Origin: a virus | Reading direction: 5' to 3' (one strand) | Virus record (IMG/VR): IMGVR_UViG_3300020474_000993 | DNA length: 64,000 bases | Part shown: piece after piece, positions 46,264 to 64,000 of the stretch | Position numbering within the stretch: position 1 is the stretch's first letter | How the letters are laid out: each line of letters begins with the position of its first letter | Made by a program: the position numbers and the translations under genes | Notes under the pieces: model-generated | Databases searched by the model: none | Told to the model about the DNA's origin: nothing | The model's input: only the letters and a program-made list of their open reading frames with translations

Positions 46264-46343
46264 TTGACTTCCTCTCTCAATTATGTTATAGTATGTAACT
46301 ATAGCCGTATTTATATCCGGCGCTCCGTTTGGCAATATAAATA
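46264..46343. promoter_or_regulatory. divergent promoter region: late promoters on - (46308-46315) and + (46336-46343), plus sigma70-like TTGACT-17-TATAGT (+)
   Basis: Two back-to-back TATAAATA. Confidence 0.75.
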
Positions 46344-47077: not shown

Positions 47078-47768
47078 AAAAAGAGATTTACCAGCGTGTG
47101 CGCCGATACCAAATATTAAATTTGATATCAATCGTATGAAAGAAGAACTTACTTATATAGGTGATAAATGGCAAAACATTTATGATGCAAATCCAGGCAT
47201 CACAAAGTTACATGACCAAGATTTCTTATCACAGATTTATAGTACCTTACATGAAATACCTTTGATGTCTATGTCACCAGAAGACATGAAAAAGGCAGAG
47301 GACTTTGAGATAGAAGACCTTGGTAAAAGTAAAATAGAAAGAGTTAGAAACAAAAAGGCAAAGGGTGCAAACTTACCCCCTACTGCAAACGAGATGTTGT
47401 GGGACTATCCCTTAAATGCCTACAAAGGAAGTTACTTTGAACACGCGATAAAGAATAACTTTAAAGCAGAGGTTTGTCGAGCTAGGATACATTTACTAGA
47501 GCCGGGCAAAGATATCTCTCCTCATATAGATTATGACCCCTCATATGGTGTTCGTTGTATATGTCCTATATCAGGCACAGAAGGAACAACAAATTTCTTT
47601 TGGTATAACGGAGAAAAACAAGAGTATAATTTGCCAGCAGATGGTTCAGTATATTTTCTTAATACTGGTTTCAAACATTCGGTGGAAAATCGTGGAACTG
47701 AAAATAGAATTGCTTTAGTATGGACTTTGAAATCACAAGAAGATATAGAATGTTTGGCTATGAAATAA
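47070..47768 (+). CDS. Asp/Asn beta-hydroxylase-like 2OG-Fe(II) oxygenase
   Basis: R.R...L.PG....HID, G.VYFLNT...HSV.N....RI.L. Confidence 0.8.
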   Translation: MLKKRDLPACAPIPNIKFDINRMKEELTYIGDKWQNIYDANPGITKLHDQDFLSQIYSTLHEIPLMSMSPEDMKKAEDFEIEDLGKSKIERVRNKKAKGANLPPTANEMLWDYPLNAYKGSYFEHAIKNNFKAEVCRARIHLLEPGKDISPHIDYDPSYGVRCICPISGTEGTTNFFWYNGEKQEYNLPADGSVYFLNTGFKHSVENRGTENRIALVWTLKSQEDIECLAMK

Positions 47769-48349
47769 GAACATATACACCAGATAAAAGGTCAGAAATA
47801 GAATCGTTTAGAGAATTGTCTTTTAAAGAAGGCAATGATAGTATCTCATACGAAAAATATGACCCAGATAATATTGATGGTGAAACTTGGATGGTTTATG
47901 TTAATAATGAATTGGCATGTATTAGTGTAGCGGAAGCAAGTCATTACACCAGTGACCCCAAAGTAGCTGCAAGAATTTGTAGACTACATATTGCAAAAAA
48001 GTTTAGACCAGCATGGTTGGGTATACCCATATTACCATATCAGATAGAGTGGGCGAAAGAAAAAGGATTTAAGGTATTATACTTCACGCATGATATCAAA
48101 GCTAGGGCGATAAACGCCATGTACCAACATAAAAAGTTTGGTGCTGCTATTACTCCTCTTCAAAAGAAGATAAAGGAAATGTGGTATAGTGATTGGTATC
48201 GTGCATTGAAGACGGATGACCGATATTACTTTCAAGTTGATGATAGGATTGAGTTATTACAATACATTTATTATTGGACACTAGAAGACGGTTATATATG
48301 GCGTCCAAAATCGAATATTATGGAGATAGATAATGAAAATAGAACATGA
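47750..48349 (+). CDS. GNAT-fold acyltransferase-like protein
   Basis: RICRLHI...FR, Q.EWAK..GF..LYFT. Confidence 0.55.
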   Translation: MFGYEIRTYTPDKRSEIESFRELSFKEGNDSISYEKYDPDNIDGETWMVYVNNELACISVAEASHYTSDPKVAARICRLHIAKKFRPAWLGIPILPYQIEWAKEKGFKVLYFTHDIKARAINAMYQHKKFGAAITPLQKKIKEMWYSDWYRALKTDDRYYFQVDDRIELLQYIYYWTLEDGYIWRPKSNIMEIDNENRT

Positions 48350-48926
48350 AACAGTAGCAAGATGGTTTAACTATGTTAGAGAAAAAAATGACCGTTGGTT
48401 TACGGAAAGTTTTTGGGATACACAGTTAAAATCCAAAAAAGAAATAATAGATAATATTCCTCAACACTTCCACGGAAATTATTATATTTTTGGTGGATGG
48501 TATGGTGTACTAGCACACTTAATAGATGACAATGTGCCAGCAGATGAAATATACACCGTTGATATTGACCCCAAATGCAAAGAGGTTGGCGACAGGTATT
48601 TTATAAGACCCAATGTAACATATGTCACGCATGACATGAAAGACTATGCATACCCTAAGAAACCAGATGTTGTTATAAACACCAGCACAGAACATGTACA
48701 TCAACACTCTTACGCTTTGTGGTGGGAAAGGATTCCTACAGGGACATTTTACATAATACAGGGAAATGACCTTGATATACCAGACCATGTTCGTTCATTT
48801 GCTTCTCTTGAATACTTTATTAAGTGGAACCTATGTACGAATATTATCTTTGAGTCTGCCATAGAATTGCCAGGCCCAAATAACAAAACTTACAACCGTT
48901 ATACGGTTATGGGATATAAAGAATGA
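48333..48926 (+). CDS. class I SAM methyltransferase-like protein
   Basis: GGWYG, DIDP, INTS.EH, QGN, RY.V.G. Confidence 0.6.
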   Translation: MKIEHETVARWFNYVREKNDRWFTESFWDTQLKSKKEIIDNIPQHFHGNYYIFGGWYGVLAHLIDDNVPADEIYTVDIDPKCKEVGDRYFIRPNVTYVTHDMKDYAYPKKPDVVINTSTEHVHQHSYALWWERIPTGTFYIIQGNDLDIPDHVRSFASLEYFIKWNLCTNIIFESAIELPGPNNKTYNRYTVMGYKE

Positions 48927-49729
48927 ACGGAAATCAAGTTGCAATTATAGGACATGGGTTTGTTGGAAGAGCGACTGAAAAGTTGTTACAAAAAGTTCCA
49001 GAAATAGGAAGAATATTTATCCAAGACCCCAAATATGATTTAATTCCTAAACATGGCCCATCAACCTTAAAACGAATATCACCAGACGAATGGGACTTTG
49101 TTAAATACGCATTTATATGTGTTCCTACTCCACTCCAAAGTGATATTAGTGTTTTGGATTATGATTACGAAGGACAGAATAAATTTGATATGTCTTGCAT
49201 AGAAGAAGCAGTAAAGGATATACCGCAACATGTACAAATAGTTATTCGTAGTACTGTTGGCCCAGATAACATAAGAGATGAGTGGGTTCATATGCCAGAA
49301 TTCTTGCGTGAACGACACTGGGAAGAGGATATAGAAGATGCATCTATTCCTATTGTAATAGGATGTTCTTATGATGAAGGTTTATTAGATTGGTTTCCAG
49401 ATAGAAATGTTGTTCGCATGGAACCAAAAGAAGCTGCCATGTACAAACTATCAAGGAACGCGATGTTAGCAGCTAAAGTAACACTGACAAACTATATTTT
49501 TGATGTTTGTAATGAATACGATGTGAACTATGATAATGTCAAAGATATGTTAAGCACATATGGAAACTTGGGTGACTCTCATTGGGATGTGCCTGGCCCA
49601 GATGGTGATTTTGGATTTGGTGGAACATGTTTTCCCAAAGATACTACACACTTTTCCTCACTACTTAAACGAACAAACATATTTGAATATATTTTAAGAG
49701 ACAATGAACGAAACCGCAAAATTCTATAA
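48923..49729 (+). CDS. UDP-glucose/GDP-mannose dehydrogenase family protein (short form)
   Basis: G.GFVG, ICVPTP, RSTV, PEFLRE, GFGGTCFPKD. Confidence 0.85.
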   Translation: MNGNQVAIIGHGFVGRATEKLLQKVPEIGRIFIQDPKYDLIPKHGPSTLKRISPDEWDFVKYAFICVPTPLQSDISVLDYDYEGQNKFDMSCIEEAVKDIPQHVQIVIRSTVGPDNIRDEWVHMPEFLRERHWEEDIEDASIPIVIGCSYDEGLLDWFPDRNVVRMEPKEAAMYKLSRNAMLAAKVTLTNYIFDVCNEYDVNYDNVKDMLSTYGNLGDSHWDVPGPDGDFGFGGTCFPKDTTHFSSLLKRTNIFEYILRDNERNRKIL

Positions 49730-50981
49730 GGATATAACAGAAAGAAACAATGCAGTAGGCAAAGGGTTTTGTGTACTCAAGTGGTGGCACTTAGAGATGC
49801 ATCTAGGTACGGGCAACTATCATTCTTGTTTTCACTGTCCACAACAAAACCTAAAACTTGATGAAGACATGCATAATACACTTCATAAGGTTCAACAAAG
49901 AAAGACTATGTTGGAAGGTGGTAGACCAGATGAGTGTTCTTATTGTTGGAAGGCAGAAGATGCTGGTGCGGTAAGTCCTAGAACAACTTTAACCCCGATA
50001 TACACGGACATGCAACCCGATATCATTGAAACTACTTCACAACTGAAGTGGGACGAACATGTTTATCCAAAATATCTTGAAATGAGTTTTTCTAACACAT
50101 GTCAAATGAAGTGTTCTTATTGTGCTCCATCACTAAGTTCTACTTTGTTAAAAGAAATAAAAGAGAATGGTATATATCCGTTACAAGACCCAGTGAATCG
50201 CGGGCAGTATGAATTAAATGGAACAGAAGAACTTTATAAGGATGATGATAACCCCCTTGTAGAAAAGTTTTGGGGTTGGTTTGAAGAAGCAAGAAAACAT
50301 CTTGAAACATTGAGAATAACAGGTGGGGAACCTTTGTTACATAAAAGTACATTTGACATGATGAAGAAACTGGATGGAAGTGATATCAACTTTCATGTAA
50401 ACAGCAACCTTTCAATGTCTAATAGAAGGGTAATCGATGCATGTAACTTGTTACCATCAAAATCTAGGATATATGCAAGTGTAGATACGATTGGAAATCA
50501 AGCAGAGTGGATTAGACACGGACTAAACTGGGAGTTGTTTGAACAAAATGTTCTTACTATTATTAATCGCAAAATTCCAATTAGTTTTATGACTACATTT
50601 TGTTTATTGAGTATTCCAAGATTCAAAGATTTCCTATACTGGATAATACAAGCAAAAGAGTTTGGAGATGTTACATTGGACACTCCATTTATGACAAACC
50701 CACCTCACCTATCTTGTCTTATTATGGATGACAATATAAGGAACACACTTGAAGACTCATATCAGTTTATGAAAGAGAATAGTGAATTTAAGGAACAAGA
50801 AGTAATAAAGTTTGAAAGAATATTGAAGTGGGTTGATGCAAATAGGTTTTCTGGAGACCGCCTAAATAGTAATAGAAAAGATTTTAAAATATTTGTCGAT
50901 GAACATGATAGGCGCAGAAACACAAACTGGCATGAAGCCTTTCCAGAGTTGACATATTTTTATGAGCTATGTGATGACTGA
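49704..50981 (+). CDS. N-terminal Twitch-domain radical SAM protein 1
   Basis: FCVLKW..CFHC..CSYCW; CQMKCSYC; GGEP. Confidence 0.9.
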   Translation: MNETAKFYKDITERNNAVGKGFCVLKWWHLEMHLGTGNYHSCFHCPQQNLKLDEDMHNTLHKVQQRKTMLEGGRPDECSYCWKAEDAGAVSPRTTLTPIYTDMQPDIIETTSQLKWDEHVYPKYLEMSFSNTCQMKCSYCAPSLSSTLLKEIKENGIYPLQDPVNRGQYELNGTEELYKDDDNPLVEKFWGWFEEARKHLETLRITGGEPLLHKSTFDMMKKLDGSDINFHVNSNLSMSNRRVIDACNLLPSKSRIYASVDTIGNQAEWIRHGLNWELFEQNVLTIINRKIPISFMTTFCLLSIPRFKDFLYWIIQAKEFGDVTLDTPFMTNPPHLSCLIMDDNIRNTLEDSYQFMKENSEFKEQEVIKFERILKWVDANRFSGDRLNSNRKDFKIFVDEHDRRRNTNWHEAFPELTYFYELCDD

Positions 50982-52362
50982 AAACAAACCAAATGAATAC
51001 TGGATAGAACAACTAAAACAGAAAAGAGAAAAGATTAACGCAATCTCTCCTTCTTTCTGTTCTGCTAAGTGGTTACAAACTACTCTGTATTTGCAGAATG
51101 GTTATAATCACTCTTGTCACCATCCATCCCCACATAAGATACCTGTAAAAGAAGTACTGGAAAATCCAGCAGCTCTTCATAATAGTAATTACAAAAAAGA
51201 ACAAAGAGTTAAGATGTTAAATGGCGTAAGACCAAAAGAATGTGATTACTGTTGGAAAATAGAAGACCAAGGCAAAGGTCATTTTTCTGACCGTCATTAC
51301 AAAACTTCTGATTGGTGGGCATGGGATAAAACTGATATTATTGCAACTAGTAATCCAACCGATGATGTCTATCCAACATACCTAGAAGTATCGTTTTCAA
51401 ACGCATGTAATTTTGCGTGTGCGTATTGTTCACCAGAGATTAGTTCTAAGTGGATGAAGGATATAGAAAAGAATGGTGACTATCCTGTACAGTTTGGTTC
51501 TGGTAATTTAGACTATTTGAGGCAAGTAGAAAAGTTTCCATATAAACACTCTGACCCAAATCCTTATGTTGATGCATTTTGGAAATGGTTCCCAGAGGCG
51601 CTTCCTCACCTTAGAGTTTTCCGCATGACTGGCGGTGAACCTACCATGAGTAAAGATGTCTGGAAAGTAATAGATTACATATATGAAAATGCCCAACCAG
51701 ATTTGTCTATCGCAATCAATAGTAATCTAGGTACAACACCAGAACTGATACAGAGACTAGTTGACGCATGTAACAAATTAAAAGACAAAGTTAAACAAAT
51801 TGAGATATATACAAGTGCGGAGGCAATTGGAGAACAGGCAGAATATATTAGAGATGGAATGGACTACGATTACTGGCGTGCCAATGTAGAAAAGGTATTA
51901 TCAGAAACAGATGCCAATGTTGCGATTATGACTACATTGAACATATTAAGTATGACTACATTTAATGACTTCATCGAAGACATAATGGAATTGAGGATAA
52001 AGTATAATAAAGATTTAGCAAATAACAGAATACCGTTAAGTATAAACTATTTAAGATTCCCGCCCCATTTACAATGTACTCTATTAGACAGGAATACTAG
52101 AATATCATATGCGTCTGATTACGAATTGACCGCGAAGGTTTGGTTGAAATATAATTCACCAGACAAGTTCGCAAGAATTTACTTGGAAGAGTATGACCAG
52201 ATACAAAGGTTCTGTGAATATCTTAGGCAAGAACACAAAGGTGCTGAAAAGTATAGAGCAGACTTTGTAAATTATATAAAAGCCTACGATATCAGAAGAG
52301 AGAAAAACTTTAGCAAAACTTTTCCAGAATATGAACATTTATTGGAGTGGTGGGATGCCTAA
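50962..52362 (+). CDS. N-terminal Twitch-domain radical SAM protein 2
   Basis: FCSAKW..CHH..CDYCW; CNFACAYC; GGEP. Confidence 0.9.
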   Translation: MSYVMTENKPNEYWIEQLKQKREKINAISPSFCSAKWLQTTLYLQNGYNHSCHHPSPHKIPVKEVLENPAALHNSNYKKEQRVKMLNGVRPKECDYCWKIEDQGKGHFSDRHYKTSDWWAWDKTDIIATSNPTDDVYPTYLEVSFSNACNFACAYCSPEISSKWMKDIEKNGDYPVQFGSGNLDYLRQVEKFPYKHSDPNPYVDAFWKWFPEALPHLRVFRMTGGEPTMSKDVWKVIDYIYENAQPDLSIAINSNLGTTPELIQRLVDACNKLKDKVKQIEIYTSAEAIGEQAEYIRDGMDYDYWRANVEKVLSETDANVAIMTTLNILSMTTFNDFIEDIMELRIKYNKDLANNRIPLSINYLRFPPHLQCTLLDRNTRISYASDYELTAKVWLKYNSPDKFARIYLEEYDQIQRFCEYLRQEHKGAEKYRADFVNYIKAYDIRREKNFSKTFPEYEHLLEWWDA

Positions 52363-52582
52363 AAAATACATTCATGTAAACATGCACAAAATTCGTGCCA
52401 ATAAAAAACATGGAACAAACGAACCTGTTCTTACAGTAAAAGAAGGAAGAAAAAATACTTATGGACATAGTGTAAAAATACATGGCCCAAGTGAAGTAAT
52501 ATATGGTGGGAATGAAAAACCATTGTTACCCTGTGGGGCAAGAGTTGTTATAATGACAGAAGCGGAGATTGAAATTGAATAA
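52355..52582 (+). CDS. conserved small phage protein
   Basis: IHVN.H.I..N.K....PV.TVK...L.CGARV. Confidence 0.75.
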   Translation: MPKKYIHVNMHKIRANKKHGTNEPVLTVKEGRKNTYGHSVKIHGPSEVIYGGNEKPLLPCGARVVIMTEAEIEIE

Positions 52583-54077
52583 AGAACATGACTTGATAAA
52601 GTATCGTAAAGATATCCTTGATACTAAGTCGAAGAGTTTTTGTGGTGCGAAGTGGTACAACGCTACCACATGGTTAGGTAGTGGTACTACTGCTAGTTGT
52701 CATCACCCCCCAGCACATAAGATTCCATTACACGAGATTTCGGCTGACCCATCTGCAATCCACAACACGCAACATAAGAAGGCAATGCGTAAGATGATGC
52801 AACGCGGAGAAAGACCTCGTGAGTGTGAGTATTGTTGGAAAGTTGAAGATATGAAAGATGAAGCTGTTAGTGACAGAGTTTTTAAATCAATCATATACAC
52901 CAACGAAGATTTGAAGAAAGCACACGAGGCGGACTTCAATGATAACACATTATTAAAAACATTTGAGATTGCATTTGACCGAACATGTAACCTCGCGTGT
53001 TCTTATTGTAACTCTAGTTTCTCTACTACATGGGCGAAGGATATAAAGAAATCTGGGCCGTATCAAAATATGGTATCAGATGGTGCAGCTGCTTTTCAAC
53101 ATGATGGTTCATGGGCAGACCCATATGGAAAGAAAGAAGAAAATCCATATGTAACAGCATTCTGGGATTGGTGGGAAGATGGACTCTCAAAGAGTCTTGA
53201 AGAGTTGAGGGTTACAGGTGGTGAACCATTGATGTCTGACCAAGTATGGAAACTGTTTGATTGGTTTGAACAGAACCCATCCGATATGAGATTTGCAGTA
53301 AACTCTAATCTTATTGCGAAGAAAAGTATTGTTGATAGACTGATAGAGAAGTCAAAGGGTGTCAAGAAGTTCCACCTTTATACTAGTTGTGAGGCAACAG
53401 GGAAACAGGCGGAGTATATAAGGGACGGACTTGACTATGAACTATGGACTAGTAATATAACACGATTTATTAAAGAAGGCAACTACGAAGGCATCAATAT
53501 AATGATGACTATTAATAGTCTGTGTTTGTTTAGTATAACAGACTTCCTAGATGATGTGTTTAAATTAAAAGAATTGACAAAAAGTAAAACGCCTGTGTTT
53601 AGTGTTAACTTATTACGATTCCCTAGTTTCCAAAGTCCCCTTGCACTACCAGACCACATCAAAGACTATCTTAGAGAAAAGTTATCTAGTTGGTATGAAG
53701 AAAACAAAGATAGACCATATTGGCATGACTTTGAGAAAGCAAGTGTTGAAAGGTTGATAGACTATCTTGTAATCGTTGACGCGCCACATAGAAGGACTAG
53801 TGATAAGATGACATTGTGGAGAGACTTCAAAACTTTCTATAATCAGTATGATGTAAGAAGAGATAAAAGTTTATCTGTATTTCCAGAAATTCTTACTGAT
53901 TGGGTAGACACTATTCCAGACACCGAAACTAAACAAATAACAGTTATGCCAAGTGGTGATAGTACAGAACAGTACGCGGATGACCCAGACTTGAAAAAAA
54001 TTGCAGAAGAAGAAGGTTGGGTATTAAAACCAGATAATAAAAATATTGATGAAGCATTGGGGGACTACGATAAATGA
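52569..54077 (+). CDS. N-terminal Twitch-domain radical SAM protein 3
   Basis: FCGAKW..CHH..CEYCW; CNLACSYC; GGEP. Confidence 0.9.
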   Translation: MKLNKEHDLIKYRKDILDTKSKSFCGAKWYNATTWLGSGTTASCHHPPAHKIPLHEISADPSAIHNTQHKKAMRKMMQRGERPRECEYCWKVEDMKDEAVSDRVFKSIIYTNEDLKKAHEADFNDNTLLKTFEIAFDRTCNLACSYCNSSFSTTWAKDIKKSGPYQNMVSDGAAAFQHDGSWADPYGKKEENPYVTAFWDWWEDGLSKSLEELRVTGGEPLMSDQVWKLFDWFEQNPSDMRFAVNSNLIAKKSIVDRLIEKSKGVKKFHLYTSCEATGKQAEYIRDGLDYELWTSNITRFIKEGNYEGINIMMTINSLCLFSITDFLDDVFKLKELTKSKTPVFSVNLLRFPSFQSPLALPDHIKDYLREKLSSWYEENKDRPYWHDFEKASVERLIDYLVIVDAPHRRTSDKMTLWRDFKTFYNQYDVRRDKSLSVFPEILTDWVDTIPDTETKQITVMPSGDSTEQYADDPDLKKIAEEEGWVLKPDNKNIDEALGDYDK

Positions 54078-54511
54078 AGATATTAATATTTGGACTGCCT
54101 GGCTCTGGTAAAACCACTCTTGCTAGAGAACTATCATATCACTTTTTACTACCCCATCACAATGGTGATACTTATAGGGAACGCATGAATGATTGGGATT
54201 TTAGTTATTCTGGAAGAAATAAACAAGCAACCAGAATGGGTAACCAATGGGGTATATTAGATTTTGTTTGCCCCACTGAATATTTAAGAGAGATTGTCAG
54301 ACCGCATTTTACTATCTTTATGAACACGATACATGAAGGTAGATACGATGACACAAATAAATTATTTGAACAACCACTATCGTGTGATATTGAGGTAAAA
54401 GAATGGATAGAACTAAACCAACTACGCAGCTCCTTGGAAGGTTTCAACCATGGCATAAAGGGCATACAGAGTTATTTAAACGAGCAATTTCCAAAACTGG
54501 TCAAGTCATAA
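54074..54511 (+). CDS. adenylyl-sulfate kinase (CysC)-like P-loop kinase
   Basis: GLPGSGKTT, NGD..R, DFS..GR, DFVCP. Confidence 0.7.
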   Translation: MKILIFGLPGSGKTTLARELSYHFLLPHHNGDTYRERMNDWDFSYSGRNKQATRMGNQWGILDFVCPTEYLREIVRPHFTIFMNTIHEGRYDDTNKLFEQPLSCDIEVKEWIELNQLRSSLEGFNHGIKGIQSYLNEQFPKLVKS

Positions 54512-54753
54512 TCTTGCTCAGAAATACGACTATTGATGAAGATAATCCATACAGCATCGAAGACAGAAGAAGTATGATTGCTATTGCACTTAATCAATCT
54601 GGATTTATTTATGGTGAAGATTATGAAGTTATGGGAGTTCCTAATATAACGCATATTACATATGGCCGCGATGTTGGATACAAAATAGAAAAGGAGTTAT
54701 TTGGAGAAAATGTAGAAAATATTTCTGCAACCGAAATTCGTAATGAAAGATAG
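54403..54753 (+). CDS. HIGH-family nucleotidyltransferase (minimal)
   Basis: GRFQPWHKGH, NP, YGRDVGY, ISATEIR; GAGG RBS. Confidence 0.8.
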   Translation: MDRTKPTTQLLGRFQPWHKGHTELFKRAISKTGQVIILLRNTTIDEDNPYSIEDRRSMIAIALNQSGFIYGEDYEVMGVPNITHITYGRDVGYKIEKELFGENVENISATEIRNER

Positions 54754-56044
54754 ACCTTACCTTTGTACAGCACCGTGGACACATACCTATGTCTCCCCAC
54801 AAGGAGAACGGAGGTTGTGTTGTGCTAGCAGAGAAGAGGCATCATTTCAAAAACAGTATTTAGATAGTGGTACTGCAAAGGGTAAGTTTGAACCACAATC
54901 ATTAAAAGAACATTGGAATAGTGATTATATGAAAGATATCCGTAAGAGGATGTTAGCGGGAGAAAAATTAAAACAATGTCAAGTATGTAATGACCAAGTT
55001 TTAAACCTACACACATATCGTCAATATTTTACCGAAACATTGTTCCCCCACAAAGTAGATGACATTATAGCGACTACGCGAGAAGACGGGCATTACGATA
55101 AGATGCCAGTCTCGTATGATTATCGTATTTCAAATCTATGTAACTTTAAATGTCGGATGTGTGGGGAACAATTATCCTCTAGTTGGGAAGCAGAAAAGAA
55201 AAAACATAATCTTATTGATGTAAAACAAGACCCTTGGATGGAACCCACTACTAGAAAGAAAATATCGAACTTTCAAGAAGAAGTTTTAGAAGAAGAATTA
55301 CAAAAAGCAGTTGATGATAAAACCATAGAAGAAATATACTGGGTTGGTGGCGAACCATTGATGTGGGAAAGACATTGGACTGTCATGCAACAATTGGTAG
55401 ATAATGGACACGCGAAAAATGTTACTATCCGTTATAATACAAATTTAAGTAGAGTAAAATATAAAGATTATAATTTATGGGACATGTTACCACATTTTAA
55501 GAATGTTAATATATGTGCCAGTATTGATGGTGCGTATGAAGTAGGTGAATATATCAGAGATGGACTAGTATGGAGTGAGTGGATAGAAAACTTCAAGTCT
55601 GGTATGTTTTTGATAGACCAATTTGGGGATGATGCGATGGTATTTGATGTTACACTAACAACGCCAGGCTTATTTCATCTTAATAAATTGATTGATGTAG
55701 CACATTCACTTGATATAAAATCATACTTCAAATTTACATATGCATTTGACCCTAGTGTTGTCATGTCACCGTTTTGTGTTCCAAAAAATGTACTTTTACC
55801 CCAAGTTGATTCATTAATGCAACATCTTAGTGACAAACTGACTCCAAAAACAAAAGTTTATAAGGATTCGCTGAATAATCTAATAAATAGAGAGTCATTT
55901 GATGAACAATGGCCTAAAACATATAAAAACGGATTGAAACGCGGAAAAGAGTTTCAAGAATATCTTGATAATCTAAGAAATACCAAATTGAAGTTTGTTG
56001 ATACACTTCACGGTGATGCCGTGGATTGGTGGAATAAAATATGA
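54743..56044 (+). CDS. N-terminal Twitch-domain radical SAM protein 4
   Basis: CTAPW..CC..CQVC; CNFKCRMC; GGEP. Confidence 0.9.
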   Translation: MKDRPYLCTAPWTHTYVSPQGERRLCCASREEASFQKQYLDSGTAKGKFEPQSLKEHWNSDYMKDIRKRMLAGEKLKQCQVCNDQVLNLHTYRQYFTETLFPHKVDDIIATTREDGHYDKMPVSYDYRISNLCNFKCRMCGEQLSSSWEAEKKKHNLIDVKQDPWMEPTTRKKISNFQEEVLEEELQKAVDDKTIEEIYWVGGEPLMWERHWTVMQQLVDNGHAKNVTIRYNTNLSRVKYKDYNLWDMLPHFKNVNICASIDGAYEVGEYIRDGLVWSEWIENFKSGMFLIDQFGDDAMVFDVTLTTPGLFHLNKLIDVAHSLDIKSYFKFTYAFDPSVVMSPFCVPKNVLLPQVDSLMQHLSDKLTPKTKVYKDSLNNLINRESFDEQWPKTYKNGLKRGKEFQEYLDNLRNTKLKFVDTLHGDAVDWWNKI

Positions 56045-57267
56045 GCGAATCATTTTGTCCTTTACCTTGGAACCATCTTGCAACCCATCCTCATGGGATA
56101 TGTACTCTATGTTGTGAGTCAAATCAAGAAGAGGGACAGTCACAAGCATTTAATGAAACGAATAATAAATCGTTTAGAAAGTTTTTGACATTACAGGATG
56201 TAAGTGATTTTTCTGAGATTACCAATTCCGATAGTTTCAGTAAAGTTAGACTACAAATGTTGAATGGTGAAAAACCAGTTGAATGTAGTAAGTGTTGGGA
56301 AGCAGAAAGTGTAGGTAACAAAAGTAAACGATATTATGAAAGTCGCCGTTTGCCTATGACTTTGAAACAGGCAAAAGAGATAACAAATGATGATGGAACT
56401 TTAAAGGAGGTCAACTATGAATTTGTGGAATTGCGTCTTGGCAACCATTGTAATGTTCAGTGCCGGACTTGCAATCCTTACTCGTCTTCTAGGTGGTTAA
56501 AGGATTGGGACAACATATATCCAGAAAGAAGAGCGCTTCCAGAGTTTACGCGAAAAAGCAGTTTTAACTGGCCATTAGAAGAAGAGTTCTGGGAAAAACT
56601 TATTGATAGATGCAACGAACTGAAATTGTTGTATATCAATGGTGGTGAACCGTTTCTTATAGACAAACATTTTAATTTCTTGCAGACTTTAGTTGATAGA
56701 GGGATATCAAAGAATGTAGAAATAGTTTACTCTACCAACTGTACCATTATCAATCACACATATGAGGACATATGGAAGGAATTTAAAAAGGTACAGTTTA
56801 TGTTGTCCATTGATTGTGTTGGTGAGAGGAATGAGTATATTAGAACCTACACCGCGTGGTCTAAGGTACTGGAGTTTGTTGATTGGATGAAGGATATTAC
56901 AGGTAAGAATGACAACCTAGATTATAACATACTTCAAACTGTATCCACATACAACATCTTCTATATACCAGAATTCTATGAGTATTTTGATGGTGAACAT
57001 ATAAGTCATAACTTTGTAAAAGACCCAGCTCAATATGACCCATTGATTTTACCACAAGTTATACAACAAAAGATTTTAGATAAATTGTCTGGATGTGAAG
57101 GATATGATGTAGTTAAGAACTACTTTAATATAGAAGGTATATCATATACTGATTTAGATTTGATGAAGTCTTTCTTCCAAAAAACTGGTGCGATGGATGT
57201 CACAAAGAAAACATCATTTAAGAAAACCTTTCCAGAATTTTATGAGTTAATTAAAGATTATGAGTGA
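56041..57267 (+). CDS. N-terminal Twitch-domain radical SAM protein 5
   Basis: CPLPW..CC..CSKCW; CNVQCRTC; GGEP. Confidence 0.9.
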   Translation: MSESFCPLPWNHLATHPHGICTLCCESNQEEGQSQAFNETNNKSFRKFLTLQDVSDFSEITNSDSFSKVRLQMLNGEKPVECSKCWEAESVGNKSKRYYESRRLPMTLKQAKEITNDDGTLKEVNYEFVELRLGNHCNVQCRTCNPYSSSRWLKDWDNIYPERRALPEFTRKSSFNWPLEEEFWEKLIDRCNELKLLYINGGEPFLIDKHFNFLQTLVDRGISKNVEIVYSTNCTIINHTYEDIWKEFKKVQFMLSIDCVGERNEYIRTYTAWSKVLEFVDWMKDITGKNDNLDYNILQTVSTYNIFYIPEFYEYFDGEHISHNFVKDPAQYDPLILPQVIQQKILDKLSGCEGYDVVKNYFNIEGISYTDLDLMKSFFQKTGAMDVTKKTSFKKTFPEFYELIKDYE

Positions 57268-58519
57268 TAAGAAAAATCTATGTATGTTGCCGTGGGTTCA
57301 TCTACACACATGGCCTAATGGAACAGTATATCCTTGTTGTGTTACTCCCATGAATTACAAAGCAGGAAACTTAAACGATAATACTTTAGAAGAGGTATAT
57401 AACAGTGACTTAATGAAAGAAATTCGTGTCAAGATGATAAACGAAGAAAGACACGATGCATGTTCTAGGTGTTGGTTACAGGAAGACCAAGGCGGTATGT
57501 CAATGAGACATAGAGCAAATAAAAGTTGGACGGAATACGAACACATGATTGATGATACTAAAGAAGATGGTACAGTGGAAGAAATGAAACTGCCATACTG
57601 GGACTTTAGGTTTTCTAATATCTGTAATTTTAAATGTCGTAGTTGTGGCCCTCAATTGAGTACTGGTTGGTACACAGATGTAAAAAAGATTTCTGTTATA
57701 GAAACTGGTAAACCAACATTGCCAGACGATATACCAAAAGGAAATAAATTTGATTTGTGGGAACAGATAGAACCACACTTTGAATCTGTAGAGGAAATAT
57801 ATTTTGCTGGTGGTGAACCTCTTATAATGGAAGAACACTATCGCATATTAAAAAAACTAGATGCGATGGGGAAACACGATGTCTTGTTAAGATATAATAC
57901 AAACTTCAGTGAAATGAGATATAAAGATTTGCATGTACTAGAATTCTGGCCAAAATTTAAAAATGTAGAGGTTGGTGCTAGTATAGATGGGATGCAAGAA
58001 CAAGGTGAATTTATTCGTAGTGGATTTAACTGGGAACAGTTTAAACAAAACAGAAACAGGATGAAAGAAACATGTTCTCATGTAAACTTTTATGTTAGTT
58101 CTACTATTAGTATTCAAAATGCATATCATGTAGTACCATTCCATCACGCGCTTGTAGACGGTGGGTATATTGACAGTTATAACTCTTTTAATGTTAATAT
58201 CGTAACAGAACCGCCTTGGCTTGATACTAGAATATTACCAGACCATCATAAACAAAAACTTGTTGAATTATATAACACTCATATTGATTTTCTTTCAGAT
58301 AAAAATGCGTGGGCAATAAAACAAAACTTTGAGGCTTTACGAAATCATGTTTCATCCGAATTAGACCCAAATACATCTTCATCTGGTAATCATTATCCAA
58401 GAAAACCATTAGGATTAAGAAAACTATTTAAATATAAAATGGAACAACTAGACGAAATAAGAAAAGAAAGTTTTTCAGAAACATTTCCAGAACTTGAGGA
58501 TTTATACGATGCCGTTTAA
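57260..58519 (+). CDS. N-terminal Twitch-domain radical SAM protein 6
   Basis: CMLPW..PCC..CSRCW; CNFKCRSC; GGEP. Confidence 0.9.
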   Translation: MSDKKNLCMLPWVHLHTWPNGTVYPCCVTPMNYKAGNLNDNTLEEVYNSDLMKEIRVKMINEERHDACSRCWLQEDQGGMSMRHRANKSWTEYEHMIDDTKEDGTVEEMKLPYWDFRFSNICNFKCRSCGPQLSTGWYTDVKKISVIETGKPTLPDDIPKGNKFDLWEQIEPHFESVEEIYFAGGEPLIMEEHYRILKKLDAMGKHDVLLRYNTNFSEMRYKDLHVLEFWPKFKNVEVGASIDGMQEQGEFIRSGFNWEQFKQNRNRMKETCSHVNFYVSSTISIQNAYHVVPFHHALVDGGYIDSYNSFNVNIVTEPPWLDTRILPDHHKQKLVELYNTHIDFLSDKNAWAIKQNFEALRNHVSSELDPNTSSSGNHYPRKPLGLRKLFKYKMEQLDEIRKESFSETFPELEDLYDAV

Positions 58520-59636
58520 AGAAAATGATAGACCTCGAAAAGAAGACAGAGTTTTCAAGACAGGTGTGGGTCATTGTAAGGATGCGGTGATTACATTAAG
58601 GTTGAGAAACAGTAGAGATGATAATGTGTCACCATTAAACATAAAAATTAAATTAGATAATAATGATGCCGTTCAGTTATGGTATCAGAGATTTAAACAC
58701 GAACTAAAAACTAATGCCTTTTTAAGAAAAGAACATGTATTCATGGGAGAAAGTATTTTGGATACAGAAGAAATGATTAAAAAAGTAAATTCTACTTTAG
58801 ACCACATATCAAAGTTTGATTTTATTGCTGAACAATGGTCTCGGTGGCAAGACTTTGTAAAGGCAGACCAGACAAATGTAATTAATCAACCTTTAACAAA
58901 AAATCCAAACATATCTGAACGGTTATCAATAGAAGATTTTGCAGATGGTAACGATAATGAAAGAATGAATGTTGTCCATAATTATTTTCCATTGTTGTCG
59001 GGCCCAGCAGATAAAACTACTGCCCATTTATATGTTGCACCACCAGATGTTCAGGCTAGTATTTGTAGATTAAATTTAGAAGTTCACGAACTCCACACTA
59101 CATTACAAAATGATGAACAGGCAGACTTTAATATGCATGTTAATGTTTCTTGGCAAAGAGCGCCAAAGAAATTGCCTGTGTTACCAGAATCTTTTGACGA
59201 TTTGTTTACTAAGTATACTAAGTTTGGTGATGTGTTACTTGGATATCCTCAGATTGGTAAAACGCACATAGAGGCTTATGCAGAAGAAGATGAGGAGTTA
59301 GAAGACGAACATGTAGAACCTATCAAATACCTTTCTGGTGATATGTTGATAAAATTTTCAACAGACCAACACGAAGATTGGGTAGAGGGGTTTGATAACT
59401 GGTTAAGAGAACAAGGATTAGACCCAGAAGATAAAAAAGGTAGATATGGGTATGCTAAATTGGGCACAGTTGTGGGTGTTGATTTGGATTTTGTGCAAGA
59501 AGAAATATCTGGTAAGTATGATGATATTGATAGGATAATTGTGATAGATAAAGAAGAACACCTTGACCATAAGTTTCCTTATAGCAGACACGATGATGAC
59601 TATGAAACTAAATTTTTGGGGTATTTACATGACTGA
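58509..59636 (+). CDS. hypothetical protein in radical SAM cluster
   Basis: N.VH.YF, LN..VHE, GDV.LGY..IGK. Confidence 0.65.
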   Translation: MPFKENDRPRKEDRVFKTGVGHCKDAVITLRLRNSRDDNVSPLNIKIKLDNNDAVQLWYQRFKHELKTNAFLRKEHVFMGESILDTEEMIKKVNSTLDHISKFDFIAEQWSRWQDFVKADQTNVINQPLTKNPNISERLSIEDFADGNDNERMNVVHNYFPLLSGPADKTTAHLYVAPPDVQASICRLNLEVHELHTTLQNDEQADFNMHVNVSWQRAPKKLPVLPESFDDLFTKYTKFGDVLLGYPQIGKTHIEAYAEEDEELEDEHVEPIKYLSGDMLIKFSTDQHEDWVEGFDNWLREQGLDPEDKKGRYGYAKLGTVVGVDLDFVQEEISGKYDDIDRIIVIDKEEHLDHKFPYSRHDDDYETKFLGYLHD

Positions 59637-60813
59637 TAAAATATGTGTATTGCCTTGGGTTCATACAGAGTTTACCACGGATGGAACTGCTAATCCATGT
59701 TGTTTATATAAAGGAGACCCGATGGGCAACTTGAAAGAAGAAAACTTTCTTGATGTTTGGAATGGGGACTCTTACACAAACCTAAGAAAAGAATTCCTTG
59801 ATGGAAAGAAACCAAAAGGTTGTGCTATGTGTTGGGAAGGTGAAGATGCTGGATATCAATCTAAAAGACTTCAAGACAATAAACGATTTGAAAGACAACT
59901 AAAAGAAATAAAAGAACAACAAAATTTTATTGCAACTGACCCTCCAAAATATCTTGACTTAAAGTTTGGTACTCTATGTAATTTAAAATGCAGAACATGT
60001 GGTAGTATAAACAGTTCAAAATGGCAAACAGATGAGAAAAAACTATACGGTAGAATATTAAACAAAAAAGACCCCCTATGGATTATTAAAAACCCAAATG
60101 TGTGGGACGAACTTTTTGAGATTATGCATACGGTAGAACAAATGGACTTCACTGGTGGTGAACCATTTATGATAGAAGAACACTTTGAGTTATTGCGTAG
60201 AACAGTCGAGGCGGGACACGCGGAACACATATCTTTACATTATAACACAAATGGAACTATTCGTCCACCACAAAAAATATTTGATTTGTGGAAAGAGTTC
60301 AAGTCTTGTGAAGTGATGTTTAGTCTTGACGGAATATTCAAGAAATTTGAATATATGAGACACCCAGCAAAATGGGATGAAGCGTGGTCAAATTATAACC
60401 ACTTTAAATCGCTTGATTGGATGCATGTACAAGTATGTCATACGGTAAGTCTTTATAATGTATATTACCTAGATGAGTTTATAGACTTGTTTGGTAGAGA
60501 AAATATATACCTTAATCTTTTACACTTTCCTAGACAGTATTGTATTAGAAATATGCCAGATGTGTGTAAAGAAAAGGTTGCAGATAAACTTATAAATATT
60601 CCAGACATAGATGATATCATATTATTTATGAATCAAGAAGCTCAATATGATAAACTTGATATGGGATTTTTGCATGTTACAGAAAAATTGGACAACATAA
60701 GAAATGAAAGTTACAGTGAAACTTTTTCAGAATTTTATAGGATATTGATAGATGGCGGAATTGGAAGAGAACCTTGGACAGTTAAGCAGTACTTTAGACC
60801 GATTGGTGAATGA
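59629..60813 (+). CDS. N-terminal Twitch-domain radical SAM protein 7
   Basis: CVLPW..PCC..CAMCW; CNLKCRTC; GGEP. Confidence 0.9.
   Translation: MTDKICVLPWVHTEFTTDGTANPCCLYKGDPMGNLKEENFLDVWNGDSYTNLRKEFLDGKKPKGCAMCWEGEDAGYQSKRLQDNKRFERQLKEIKEQQNFIATDPPKYLDLKFGTLCNLKCRTCGSINSSKWQTDEKKLYGRILNKKDPLWIIKNPNVWDELFEIMHTVEQMDFTGGEPFMIEEHFELLRRTVEAGHAEHISLHYNTNGTIRPPQKIFDLWKEFKSCEVMFSLDGIFKKFEYMRHPAKWDEAWSNYNHFKSLDWMHVQVCHTVSLYNVYYLDEFIDLFGRENIYLNLLHFPRQYCIRNMPDVCKEKVADKLINIPDIDDIILFMNQEAQYDKLDMGFLHVTEKLDNIRNESYSETFSEFYRILIDGGIGREPWTVKQYFRPIGE
60591..60598 (+). promoter_or_regulatory. possible internal late promoter TATAAATA
   Basis: Exact consensus about 155 nt upstream of ORF 60752. Confidence 0.45.
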
Positions 60814-62485
60814 AGTAGCTGGTCTTAGAACAGAATTAGCAGACCTCAAAAAAATCAATACCAGTGTACTCAAAAAACAACTGGTAAGAAAGGGCGCTGA
60901 AAAAGAAATACATTATTTGTGGTGGGATAAAAAACAAGGACAAACAAATCACGAAGATGTTTTTACTTGGCCATCATCAAACTGTTCTTCTAGGCCAAAC
61001 CATGTTTTTCAAAATCAAACTACGATACTATCACATTACCAGAATGTAGATTGGCCTTACCAAGTTGGCGATATTCAAAACTTTGAACCAGATGGAGTTC
61101 ACAAAAACAAAAACAACCTTTACTTCTTAGAACCACAATATGTGTTTTCAGACCAATGGGAATTGTGCGTGGATTATATTCCACAAGAAGTTGTATGTTG
61201 GTTGCGAGAAAGAAAAATGGCTTTGGTTTTATGGTTCCCCCACGAAGGTTTTAATTTTGAACAGGGATATAACCACATAGGATGGTTACAAATGTTCCAT
61301 GAACAAATGCGAAAACACCAACTAGAAAACATTATATGTTATTTTGTATTTGGTGATTTACAGGCAGCTCCGAACTATGATACATTTTTAAGAACGCGAC
61401 AGGGTAATGAAAGAACTCAATTTGAATTTACAAAAGTTATTTCTTATGATTATTTTCATCAAGATTACTGGAGAGAGTATTCAGAAAGAACAGGCATCTA
61501 TGTAAACAGATTACAAAATCCAAAATATATGCATCAAAACACATATGGTGATTCTCAATTAACAGGAGGATTTACTGACCATGTTATAATTCCATACGAA
61601 GACTTTAACGCTGAACTTTTGGGTAGAGAACCAAACTCTATAGTACAAGACTCCTATGAAAGATGCAAACCAGATGAAGTATTGGTAGGAATTCCAAACG
61701 GAATTGATAAAACCAAAGACCTTATTTGCCTAAATGCTAGACCGAGGTCTCATAGACCAGTATTGGTTTCTGAATTGCACAGGATAGGATATAACAATGA
61801 AAATTCGTATGTAAGTTTTCTTGGTAGAGAAGATATGTTGAATCAACACGGAGAACTTATTACTGGTCAACCTATTTGGAAACAACAGATGTTCAGAGAT
61901 TTGAACATCACGCAGTTTACTGCTAGGAAAGATAATCCTTTCATTTCTTTTCTTTCACATGATGTTCAGATAGAATACACTTATAGATTCTGGAAAGACC
62001 GAAATATGGTTCTCGCTGATAGGTCAGTAATGGAAGTACATGGTGATGACAGACTAATAACATCGCAGATGTATAAAGATACATTTTTTAGTTTGGTGTC
62101 TGAAACATTATTTGGTGAAGATAAAGAAAGTTTGTTTGTAACAGAAAAAACATTCAAAGCTATTGCTTATCGACATCCTTTTATGATTGTAGGAAACATG
62201 GGTACATTGAGGCATTTGAGGTTTCTTGGATATGAAACATTCCCCGAAATGTTTGATGAAAGTTATGACCAAGAATATGACCCAAAGAAAAGGTTCTCAA
62301 TTATATTAAGAAACTTGGAACAGTGGTATCAATTATCAAGGGAGGAAAAAATTAAAAAGTATGATTCCGTAAAGGAAAAACTAAAACACAATTTTGAATT
62401 ATTTAAAAACTCTAGGAGTCAATTTGAGAAAGACACCACTCATGTATTGAGTCAGTTGTCATCTCACAGTGTTGATATATTGTAA
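60752..62485 (+). CDS. GT10-like (TEKT-motif) glycosyltransferase-related protein
   Basis: CLN..PR.HR, SLVSET....FVTEKTFK....PF..VG...L..LGYETF..DESYD. Confidence 0.55.
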   Translation: MAELEENLGQLSSTLDRLVNEVAGLRTELADLKKINTSVLKKQLVRKGAEKEIHYLWWDKKQGQTNHEDVFTWPSSNCSSRPNHVFQNQTTILSHYQNVDWPYQVGDIQNFEPDGVHKNKNNLYFLEPQYVFSDQWELCVDYIPQEVVCWLRERKMALVLWFPHEGFNFEQGYNHIGWLQMFHEQMRKHQLENIICYFVFGDLQAAPNYDTFLRTRQGNERTQFEFTKVISYDYFHQDYWREYSERTGIYVNRLQNPKYMHQNTYGDSQLTGGFTDHVIIPYEDFNAELLGREPNSIVQDSYERCKPDEVLVGIPNGIDKTKDLICLNARPRSHRPVLVSELHRIGYNNENSYVSFLGREDMLNQHGELITGQPIWKQQMFRDLNITQFTARKDNPFISFLSHDVQIEYTYRFWKDRNMVLADRSVMEVHGDDRLITSQMYKDTFFSLVSETLFGEDKESLFVTEKTFKAIAYRHPFMIVGNMGTLRHLRFLGYETFPEMFDESYDQEYDPKKRFSIILRNLEQWYQLSREEKIKKYDSVKEKLKHNFELFKNSRSQFEKDTTHVLSQLSSHSVDIL

Positions 62486-63531
62486 TGTATTGGTCAAGGG
62501 GTGCTGACAGAGAAAGTGGCAGTTGGCATATAACAGAATTTGAAAGACTTTTTGTTAGAGAACTAATTGCTCAGAAACCAGATGATTGTATCTTGGTTAA
62601 TTCTACATGGTTTTCAAAACCAGAGAATGTAACAGACTTAAAACAATGGTTTAATGCGAGTCAATTTAAAGCAGGAGAAACCCCCCGAATTTTATTGTAT
62701 TCTGGCATGGATTGGGAAAACTCCACATGTACAGAATCTACGCGAGAAGCACATAAGTTTCTTAATGATAATTGGGAAGTTATTAATATAGGGAATACTG
62801 GTACTGGGCATTACTTTAACTTTTGGTTGTCTTTTATACATAAAAACCTTGACACCTTCTTTGATTCGTGTTATACTGAAACACCTAACATAAAAAAATA
62901 CTTTATGTGTTTGAATCATCAACCGCATAAACACAGAATAGAGTTTTTAAATCTTTTACATGAAGTGGGTATGTTTCACCATGGCATTGTTTCTGCTGTA
63001 GTTCCACATGAAGAATATACATTTCAAAATCCTATTGTATTAAAAGAAAATAGACCATCTTATATTATGGAAAAGGCGTATGAGTGGGAAAAGATAAATG
63101 AGACCCACCTAGCAAATGATATTATATCTTTGGGTGACCCACAATATTGGAATTCTCATTTTTGTACTGTTGTAACTGAAAGTGTAATGCATAGTAATGT
63201 GTTTTTAAGTGAGAAAACATTTAAACCGTTAATAGGACTTAGACCCTTTATAATTTTGGGTGATGATGGTGTGTATGATAAATTAAAAGAATATAAGTTT
63301 GATACATTTGAAGATTTGTTTCCACAAATACACCGCAAAGGGCAGAACAAATATTGGCGAATAAATAATGCTATGAGTGACCTTTGTTCCTTGCAAAGAA
63401 CATATGGTGATGCAGATAGTTTAACCGTCTTGTATAGTCAGTTAGAAGATAGGTTGATGTACAATAGAAAAAGAGTATTAGAAATAATTAATGATAATTA
63501 CACGGATATTATGGAGATTAATAAGTTATGA
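62485..63531 (+). CDS. GT10-like (TEKT-motif) glycosyltransferase-related protein
   Basis: CLN..PH.HR, VVTES...FLSEKTFKP...RPF..LG. Confidence 0.55.
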   Translation: MYWSRGADRESGSWHITEFERLFVRELIAQKPDDCILVNSTWFSKPENVTDLKQWFNASQFKAGETPRILLYSGMDWENSTCTESTREAHKFLNDNWEVINIGNTGTGHYFNFWLSFIHKNLDTFFDSCYTETPNIKKYFMCLNHQPHKHRIEFLNLLHEVGMFHHGIVSAVVPHEEYTFQNPIVLKENRPSYIMEKAYEWEKINETHLANDIISLGDPQYWNSHFCTVVTESVMHSNVFLSEKTFKPLIGLRPFIILGDDGVYDKLKEYKFDTFEDLFPQIHRKGQNKYWRINNAMSDLCSLQRTYGDADSLTVLYSQLEDRLMYNRKRVLEIINDNYTDIMEINKL

Positions 63532-64000
63532 CCAAGATTGCATTTATTGGATTTGGTAAATTAGGACAACCATGTGGAGAAGTAATCGCAGAAAAGGGGT
63601 TTGATGTAGTTGCATATGATGTAGCTAAAGTTGACACACACATACCCATGAAAGAATCAATAGAGGATGTTGTAAGGGGAAGACACATTGTCTTTGTCGC
63701 TGTACCAACGCCACATGACCCCCTATACGATGGTTCAGAACCAACATACCATTTACCGCCAAAAGATTTTAATTACGACACAGTAAAAGAGGTTGTTGCA
63801 GAAGCTAATAGTTATATGAACCCAGAACAGATGTTGGTTCTTATTAGTACGGTATTGCCGGGCACTGTTAGAAATGAAATTGCACCTCTTGTTACTAATA
63901 CAAGATTTGTCTATAACCCATACTTAATTGCTATGGGTACAGTTAAGTGGGATATGGTTAATCCAGAGATGGTAATGATAGGTACAGAAAATGGAGAAGA
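63528..64000 (+). CDS. UDP-glucose 6-dehydrogenase family protein (truncated by window edge)
   Basis: IG.GKLG, VAVPTP, ISTVLPGT, YNPYLIAMG. Confidence 0.85.
   Translation, partial: MTKIAFIGFGKLGQPCGEVIAEKGFDVVAYDVAKVDTHIPMKESIEDVVRGRHIVFVAVPTPHDPLYDGSEPTYHLPPKDFNYDTVKEVVAEANSYMNPEQMLVLISTVLPGTVRNEIAPLVTNTRFVYNPYLIAMGTVKWDMVNPEMVMIGTENGE

Follow-up and report, generated by a model that had tools for sequence, protein, structure and literature searches.

We analysed a 64,000-nucleotide stretch of DNA (hereafter the window) from IMG/VR virus record IMGVR_UViG_3300020474_000993, the source of which is an uncultured marine T4-like phage, and we focus on an island in which seven paralogous radical S-adenosylmethionine (SAM) enzymes, R1 to R7, lie among sugar-related genes. 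From 48923 to the window end all long open reading frames (ORFs) are on the + strand, and neighbours overlap or abut, as the initial annotation of this DNA had stated, by 1–62 nt. The order is a methyltransferase-like gene, a short dehydrogenase-like gene, R1, R2, a 75-aa ORF, R3, a kinase, a nucleotidyltransferase, R4, R5, R6, an orphan gene that we call U380, R7, two glycosyltransferase (GT) genes, and a second dehydrogenase-like gene. Seven of these + strand ORFs match the NCBIfam family NF033640 (N_Twi_rSAM) over nearly the entire 398-position profile, with scores of 290–403 bits against a curated cut-off of 170 bits: R1 (49704..50981; 290.5 bits), R2 (50962..52362; 334.6 bits), R3 (52569..54077, with a TTG start at 52569 or 52575; 298.9 bits), R4 (54743..56044; 335.0 bits), R5 (56041..57267; 342.6 bits), R6 (57260..58519; 403.2 bits), and R7 (59629..60813, start approximate; 362.7 bits).

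In an alignment of R1–R7 the four N-terminal Cys, CxxxCxxC, GGEP, and several more polar residues are all invariant, so that the seven intact CxxxCxxC/GGEP enzymes of the initial annotation stand with their motifs kept. The alignment also reproduces its two motif subtypes, three paralogues of subtype A (R1–R3; CxxKW, C(F/H)H, and CxxxC(S/A)YC) followed by four of subtype B (R4–R7; CxxPW, CC, and CxxxCRxC). The Pfam radical SAM core (PF04055) is detected in 7/7, and a SPASM-type domain is found at the N-terminus, residues 6–91, in R4–R7. The seven orthogroups take in 509 of 553 aligned relatives; within every one of them CxxxCxxC and GGEP are 100% or nearly 100% conserved, the four N-terminal Cys are conserved across all orthogroups, and R56, S134, S241, E250, R253, and T282 (R6 numbering) are invariant over all seven clades. 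Outside CxxxCxxC there are four conserved Cys in subtype A and five in subtype B, fewer than the seven to eight that define a full SPASM domain and consistent with a twitch domain that holds a single cluster. Searched against PDB sequences, the N-terminal ~70 residues of the family profile match the C-terminal twitch of BtrN (residues 186–259, E 6e-7) and the core matches viperin, indicating that the domain order is permuted relative to BtrN and placing the auxiliary-cluster domain at the N-terminus, where the initial annotation had put it. By its conserved residues, each enzyme has the Cys predicted to bind two clusters, a [4Fe-4S] cluster for SAM cleavage and a single auxiliary one.

We conducted a scan of IMG/VR that returned at least 598 matching stretches, analysed 80 of these loci (81 viral loci in all, including a full-flank subset of 46 with complete 10-kb flanks), clustered all ORFs, and built a FastTree phylogeny of 553 family members drawn from the viral loci and 79 bacterial loci. 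This comparison of genome neighbourhoods, which the initial annotation had proposed as a check, resolves the paralogues into R1–R7 with recurrent partners. Each window paralogue falls in a separate clade that nearly always contributes a single member per locus: R1 (66 members, 65 loci), R2 (19 members, 19 loci, support 0.99), R3 (81 members, 79 loci, support 1.0), R4 (72 members, 69 loci), R5 (23 members, 23 loci, support 1.0), R7 (78 members, 78 loci), and R6, which is also widespread in bacteria. Among the 46 full-flank loci, R3 and R6 are present in 45 each, R7 in 43, R4 in 41, R1 in 36, R5 in 11, and R2 in 10. The core thus comprises R1 or R2, R3, R4, R6, and R7; R1 and R2 usually replace each other, and the window, to whose lineage R2 and R5 are accessory additions, carries both and represents the fullest cassette variant encountered among the loci examined. 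On the evidence of the tree, the seven paralogues are old, distinct working genes with presumably separate jobs and not the product of a recent amplification. Comparison of the window with a 98%-identical relative (locus L001) gives ratios of nonsynonymous to synonymous polymorphism (pN/pS) of 0.03–0.16 over the radical SAM genes; U380 has 0.07 and the gene of a 577-aa GT-like protein 0.23. All seven enzymes are thus under purifying selection.

Other phages share the arrangement: IMG/VR has at least 598 stretches that match the cassette, of which the window carries one variant. A 161-kb IMG/VR contig that is 91% complete (G001) is collinear with the window at 78–94% nucleotide identity, and two more contigs, at 76% protein identity, carry the window's seven radical SAM genes in unchanged order. 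In L001 an additional 182-aa Methyltransf_24 gene (3668–4216 of that locus), not found in the window, sits between U380 and R7, and another relative, L002, lacks the kinase and nucleotidyltransferase pair, so whole-gene insertions and deletions occur within an island that is conserved in other respects. Neither a megablast search of 50,697 phage records with the island nor an exact-DNA search of IMG/VR with the end of the window returned a match, and the only relatives that tblastn found for R6, at 22–25%, were those of Vibrio phages K566/K567 and of Ralstonia phage RsoM2USA.

The core partners of the enzymes are a GT-B family, U380, and a carbamoyltransferase with a Tyr-tailed micro-peptide. 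No co-occurring family is more abundant than the GT-B family (cluster 1), which counts 156 members over 60 loci and 2–5 paralogues per locus; in the full-flank loci it is present in 36, the carbamoyltransferase also in 36, and U380 in 31. The commonest order begins with a tail-fibre-like gene with a Peptidase_G2 intramolecular-chaperone domain, followed by the families c7, c6, c3, c3, (c8), and c2, and continues with R1, (GT), R3, R6, R7, R4, U380, micro-peptide, and carbamoyltransferase, after which c10 and further GT genes often lie on the opposite strand. Taking the cassette as the core orthogroups with U380, GT-B, and carbamoyltransferase/peptide genes on one strand, we find it in the window lineage: R1–R7, U380, and two GT-B genes are in the window, and the carbamoyltransferase and the peptide tail are supplied downstream in its collinear relatives, where the island extends past the window end. 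In G001 this continuation consists of a 79-aa ORF, a 269-aa unknown, the carbamoyltransferase, and further unknowns, and farther downstream of an NAD-dependent epimerase/dehydratase and another radical SAM gene. The families c2, c3, c6, c7, c8, c9, and c10 are absent from the whole of the 161-kb contig, which makes them dispensable for the radical SAM set; c2, c3, c6, c7, and c8 have no Pfam or PHROGs match, and the sole match of c10 in these databases is a PHROG without assigned function. Because the window lacks the tail-fibre-linked genes, it helps tell core from accessory components.

U380 (58509..59636, + strand) is an acidic, cassette-specific 375-aa protein in which ~20 residues, His, Trp, Glu, and Lys among them, are invariant, and it occurs in 47/81 viral loci; a full-database profile search retrieved 774 representative clusters. 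The initial annotation had called it a His-containing protein without known family, and its orphan status holds: Pfam, PHROGs, and NCBIfam gave no match, the protein Atlas no usable match, and a PDB sequence profile search nothing credible, and a scan of all 40 U380 members at E≤1 returned scattered noise only. The window gene overlaps the end of R6 by 11 nt. In one metagenomic representative (P0253, 754 aa) the two are naturally fused, with U380 at 19–300 followed by an R6-type N_Twi_rSAM at 334–750; its radical SAM half gives an hhalign E of 1e-80, and the nearest relatives of that half are all R6. This single fusion is a lead toward a physical partnership of U380 with R6, suggested by gene architecture. 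Other U380 homologues, of 712–775 aa (P0200, P0205, P0212–P0215, and P0228), carry an unrelated, unidentified N-terminal domain of ~400 residues, which in the P0205-type fusions has no match to the radical SAM profile, the GT profile, or PDB sequences.

Several GT-B paralogues and a NodU/CmcH-type carbamoyltransferase are steadily linked to the enzymes, an indication that the product bears a sugar and is made in the cytoplasm, and the sporadic dehydrogenase-like, epimerase, and SGNH-like genes point the same way. We therefore read the island as the seven-enzyme variant of a widespread phage cassette that would make, and radically edit, a sugar-containing product in the cytoplasm of the infected cell; we give this reading about an even chance, and it is the best supported of those considered. 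The placement of the enzymes among sugar-related genes is as first described: the GT-B family and the NDP-sugar (nucleoside diphosphate sugar)-dehydrogenase-like genes are in the island, and the carbamoyltransferase and epimerase genes lie just downstream. Characterised sugar-acting relatives exist in the twitch radical SAM enzymes BtrN, the 2-deoxy-scyllo-inosamine dehydrogenase, and BlsE, the cytosylglucuronate decarboxylase. Like these, the window enzymes have one auxiliary-cluster twitch domain, and they share the profile match to BtrN; an AlphaFold2 (AF2) model of R6 (predicted local distance difference test, pLDDT, 93) has its best structural match in BlsE (Z 12.3, root-mean-square deviation 3.9 over 221 residues), and dehydrogenase-like genes of a uronic-acid-forming type accompany the window enzymes. 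Unlike BtrN and BlsE, the window enzymes have the twitch at the N-terminus rather than the C-terminus and a helical C-terminal extension of ~100 residues, identity is 13–18%, and their Z scores tie with those of peptide-modifying enzymes.

Several observations weigh against a sugar-editing cassette. The R6 model scores Z 12.0 with anSME, 11.8 with CteB, and 11.3 with SkfB, all peptide-modifying and tied with BlsE, and no reaction is known for any NF033640 member. Pfam gives no match for the GT-B proteins, and UGDH (UDP-glucose dehydrogenase)-like and epimerase genes occur in only 10–12 of the 81 loci (UGDH-like in 10). The window lineage lacks the tail-fibre-linked c2, c3, c6, c7, and c8, the promoter evidence is weak, and bacterial neighbourhoods also hold PhyH, WelO5-like, and UbiA genes, which would fit small-molecule or lipid chemistry.

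Of the two GT genes, the first encodes the 577-aa GT-like protein (60752..62485, + strand), whose C-terminal half carries the motif ...VSET...FVTEK..K...PF..VG and is homologous to the 348-aa GT-like protein encoded by the second (62485..63531, + strand); this shared C-terminal domain (E 4e-8) places both in cluster 1. Neither has a Pfam (E≤0.05), PHROG, NCBIfam, or PDB-sequence match, and the protein Atlas neighbours of the 577-aa protein are unnamed virus-only clusters. The AF2 model of the 348-aa protein (pLDDT 88.5) has a GT-B fold with two Rossmann-like domains; Foldseek ranks GT10 fucosyltransferases at the top, weakly (E 4e-3), and among the best 50 rows of VIA-align the best-scoring are glycosyltransferase-fold entries (Z 10–11.7 over 240–287 residues), in which GT10 enzymes score level with HY126 DNA arabinosyltransferase and with the T4 alpha- and beta-glucosyltransferases, at 7–12% identity. 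The model thus supports the designation glycosyltransferase-like. The initial annotation had called these proteins GT10-like, and the part that stands is the predicted GT-B fold of the 348-aa protein: neither protein belongs to GT10 (PF00852) by sequence profile, the Z scores fail to separate GT families, and the likeness to GT10 enzymes (H. pylori FucT, FUT9, and plant FUT13; Z 11.2–11.3) is, on the model, a resemblance only. The conserved R...E...TEK..K pattern of the family is reminiscent of the GT10 donor-binding motif. Phage DNA glycosyltransferases (T4 AGT/BGT and HY126) are as similar, at Z 11.0–11.7.

This structural tie bears on DNA hypermodification, which the initial annotation had listed as one possible target of the pathway. 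The GT-B proteins would then glycosylate a modified base, and the radical SAM enzymes and carbamoyltransferase would edit the sugar or its NDP donor, in evasion of restriction. The phage is T4-like, all proteins are soluble, the kinase and nucleotidyltransferase recall the sugar-activating AfhE of arabinosyl-5-hydroxycytosine phages, and the GT-B model ties, at Z 11–11.7, with the HY126 and T4 DNA enzymes (PMC13326640). However, the 91%-complete G001 lacks a gene of the thymidylate-synthase (PF00303)/dCMP-hydroxymethylase family and has ThyX only, so that the usual hydroxymethylase is missing; there are 2–5 GT paralogues per locus with a GT10-like ...TEK..K motif; and in other phages the cassette lies behind tail-fibre genes. 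The T4 DNA-modification genes are early genes, whereas a late-type promoter motif, itself weak evidence, is present here. We regard DNA as an improbable target. The host surface, also named by the initial annotation, is the least likely destination of the glycan: no island protein from 47070 onward has a membrane segment, and the island has no flippase, polymerase, polyprenyl-phosphate transferase, or exporter gene, which makes a host surface polysaccharide unlikely.

The carbamoyltransferase is accompanied by a 33-aa Tyr-tailed peptide (...RKRDPFIYK) in 55/81 viral loci, and in most other phage loci the peptide overlaps the carbamoyltransferase start by 4 nt. In G001 (L161) the 79-aa ORF at 9219–9458, ~0.9 kb past the window end, terminates in ...KMRERDPFIYD, the tail of the 33-aa peptide; in the window lineage the 269-aa gene sits between this ORF and the carbamoyltransferase. 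The peptide introduces a different explanation, in which the radical SAM enzymes mature a ribosomal product through cross-links, epimerisation, or C-terminal chemistry, with a virion or tail-fibre protein or the Tyr-tailed peptide itself as candidate substrate and the GT-like and carbamoyl enzymes decorating the same scaffold. Most characterised SPASM and twitch enzymes act on peptides; the top fold matches include SkfB, CteB, SuiB, and anSME, in searches with the R6 model that leave sugar-acting and peptide-acting relatives indistinguishable; the peptide is conserved, its tail recurring in the 79-aa ORF of the window lineage; and in many phages the cassette follows the tail-fibre-like gene with the Peptidase_G2 domain. 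Yet no paralogue has a match to an RRE or PqqD-like leader-binding domain in the Pfam and NCBIfam profiles. Furthermore, to judge by the gene overlaps, translational coupling ties the peptide to the carbamoyltransferase rather than to the radical SAM genes, and 8 of the 46 full-flank loci hold arrays of 2–7 radical SAM paralogues with neither peptide nor carbamoyltransferase. The families c6 and c8, considered as precursor peptides, were rejected: both have the look of ordinary small globular proteins, neither occurs in the window or its relative, and no other conserved small ORF was found to accompany the arrays. We consider peptide or protein maturation, which could also have a protein encoded in trans as its substrate, unlikely, while according it an appreciable minor share of probability.

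Genes that could serve lipid chemistry lie next to the island. The co-directional run that enters it begins with four overlapping + strand genes (46349..48926), which encode a fatty-acid-desaturase-like membrane protein (PF00487, E 9e-12), an Asp/Asn beta-hydroxylase-like 2-oxoglutarate oxygenase of the LpxO family (PF05118, E 7e-6), a 209-aa unknown, and a weakly methyltransferase-like 197-aa protein (Methyltransf_25, E 0.005); the same four also precede the array in L002. The desaturase and hydroxylase at the head of the run could mean that an acyl chain, isoprenoid, cofactor, or secondary metabolite is what is edited, the sugar genes being incidental. Bacterial R6-type genes adjoin UbiA prenyltransferases, many PhyH dioxygenases, WelO5-like oxygenases, GDSL-like proteins, and B12-radical SAM enzymes, and the tetraether lipid synthases Tes and GDGT-MAS are matched weakly, both by profile and by fold. 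But desaturase and hydroxylase genes occur in only 6–7 of the 81 viral loci by cluster counts, it is the GT-B family and the carbamoyltransferase that constantly accompany the viral arrays, and the desaturase is the only membrane protein; we find lipid or other small-molecule tailoring quite unlikely. Bacterial homologues, nearly all R6-type, also have GT2, epimerase/dehydratase, UGDH, carbamoyltransferase, and ABC-transporter genes as neighbours, which favours the sugar-containing product.

The dehydrogenase-like and kinase/nucleotidyltransferase genes on which the initial annotation relied are accessory, with UGDH-like genes in 10/81 and the kinase/nucleotidyltransferase family in 6/81 viral loci. 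Its two UDP-glucose dehydrogenases are recognisable as NDP-sugar-dehydrogenase-like, since both have the N-terminal and central Pfam domains and keep the catalytic Cys motif (GFGGTCFPKD in the first, GDGGACHPRD in the second), but they are divergent, scoring 80.4 and 134.3 bits on TIGR03026 (UDP-glucose/NDP-sugar 6-dehydrogenase), below its curated cut-off of 189.8 bits. The first (48923..49729, + strand, 268 aa) lacks the C-terminal domain; the second is represented in the window by its 5' part (63528..64000, + strand), and the score is that of the complete 413-aa protein in L001. The kinase/nucleotidyltransferase pair is likewise present, but in altered form: the P-loop kinase-like protein (54074..54511, + strand) and the HIGH-motif nucleotidyltransferase (54403..54753, + strand) match the N-terminal and C-terminal halves of a single 230-position family, phrog_10255, and their genes overlap by 109 nt. 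The nucleotidyltransferase is nearer NMN adenylyltransferases (NMNAT-type enzymes) than sugar-1-phosphate nucleotidyltransferases. A programmed frameshift joining the two was considered and set aside: no canonical slippery site was seen, and the second gene has its own GAGG and ATG at 54392–54405. Between R2 and R3, the basic 75-aa ORF (52355..52582, + strand) matches phrog_8676 (E 5e-19), a PHROG without assigned function, and is restricted to close relatives of the window (cluster 39, 4 loci).

Returning to the sugar-containing product, we propose that the GT-B enzymes would assemble a sugar or short glycan from NDP-sugars on a soluble acceptor, with uronic acids provided by the dehydrogenase-like enzymes in the window lineage. 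Each radical SAM paralogue may abstract H from a different unactivated C–H and so make one distinct edit, the auxiliary cluster taking up the electron; candidate edits on the common scaffold, by analogy with BtrN, BlsE, DesII, and AprD4, are oxidation to a ketone, epimerisation, deoxygenation, and decarboxylation. R6 probably acts in complex with U380, and the carbamoyltransferase would cap a hydroxyl group. The invariant R56, S134, S241, E250, R253, and T282 suggest a shared handle on the substrates, which might be a nucleotide diphosphate or a common carrier, for example. As acceptor we think a soluble molecule made by the phage most probable, and we favour a virion protein, since the tail-fibre-like gene immediately precedes the cassette in most other phages. 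More specifically, and only tentatively, at least five mechanistically distinct radical SAM enzymes, one of them with U380, might successively edit a phage glycan or glycopeptide that is then carbamoylated and displayed on the virion; we hold this fuller version to be rather less than an even bet. The phage would also supply an A-type Fe-S carrier, for which G001 has a gene at 83090–83380.

Virion glycosylation is known in chloroviruses (capsid) and mycobacteriophages (capsid/tail), and these systems resemble the cassette in their soluble viral GTs, which in the cassette are predicted, in the lack of host-type export, and, for many cassette phages, in a location near structural genes. To our knowledge, none of those systems has radical SAM enzymes or a carbamoyltransferase. 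The family is large (at least 6,907 N_Twi_rSAM members in one search), and NF033640, to which all seven enzymes are full-profile matches, divides here into at least seven orthogroups that separated long ago and keep company in phages. Sugar-acting radical SAM enzymes are few, and each has revealed new chemistry. The phage sets comprise five to eight distinct paralogues, fixed and with dedicated partner proteins, as is typical of a pathway with several steps. Once the product is identified, N_Twi_rSAM, U380, the virus-only GT-B family, and the peptide-coupled carbamoyltransferase would all gain a function together, and it would become clear why large aquatic phages lay out ~56 iron atoms per enzyme set (seven enzymes with two [4Fe-4S] clusters each), along with an Fe-S carrier of their own, in iron-poor water. 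If the fuller version of our reading, with the glycan displayed on the virion, is true, the product would be the first radical-SAM-tailored viral glycoconjugate, and its enzymes would provide the first reactions for a family of thousands.

The cassette is real and conserved, is not unique to the window, and is undescribed in the searched literature, where we found no paper on the NF033640 reaction or on the cassette (searching for the family name, N-terminal twitch, and phage radical SAM with carbamoyltransferase). Of the undescribed phage pathway for tailored glycans that the initial annotation envisaged, the sugar-related neighbours and the lack of a description in the searched literature are supported, whereas the action of the enzymes on sugars and the molecule to be decorated are proposals. 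The only mention found is a gene count in passages of Nishimura et al. 2017 on T4-like environmental genomes that have a carrier gene and up to 12 radical SAM genes; the 12 belong to a marine genome of 183 kb, T4-like and with an A-type carrier gene (PMC5332604). G001 resembles these genomes in its A-type carrier and nine radical SAM genes; in those passages the genes are counted as Fe-S related, and the family, paralogues, cassette, and function are not described (PMC5332604). As far as can be told, what is new here is the resolution into core and accessory R1–R7, the U380::R6 fusion, and the full enzyme set without the tail-fibre-linked genes.

Two of the radical SAM genes of G001 lie outside the N_Twi family, at 18287–19816 and ~91951–93039, one of them ~10 kb downstream of the window end and on the same strand. 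Arrays related to the island also occur in other settings. Two contigs of one Haliscomenobacter sp. metagenome-assembled genome (L007 and L010) each carry five phage-orthogroup paralogues with U380, the Tyr-tailed peptide, and the carbamoyltransferase; a prophage, a phage contig binned wrongly, or a cassette copy that belongs to the bacterium could account for them. In a contig binned as bacterial (L016, Bacteriovoracaceae UBA6144), an eight-paralogue array at 6028–18024 represents all seven phage orthogroups R1–R7. The cultured Vibrio phage K566 (OZ196521.1, 255 kb) has four distant N_Twi-like paralogues at 8965–15701 (24–26% identity), one of them annotated merely as hypothetical; BLAST detected no U380, GT-B family, or carbamoyltransferase gene in it, and the phage could serve as an experimental handle.

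Upstream of the island, a late-promoter-like motif (TATAAATA, 46336..46343, + strand) heads the co-directional gene run and is accompanied by a sigma70-like site at 46264–46292. Both are weak evidence, and the count of TATAAATA within the window is not above chance expectation. A second copy of TATAAATA at 60591–60598, within R7 and ~160 nt upstream of the 577-aa GT-like gene, may, subject to the same chance-level count, be an internal late promoter. Farther upstream, ~17 kb from the island, a 339-aa ORF at 31989–33008 is homologous to the unannotated cluster c16 (tblastn E 6e-38), and part of it weakly matches (E 9e-7) c14, a DUF6071/SGNH-like companion of the cassette in other phages.

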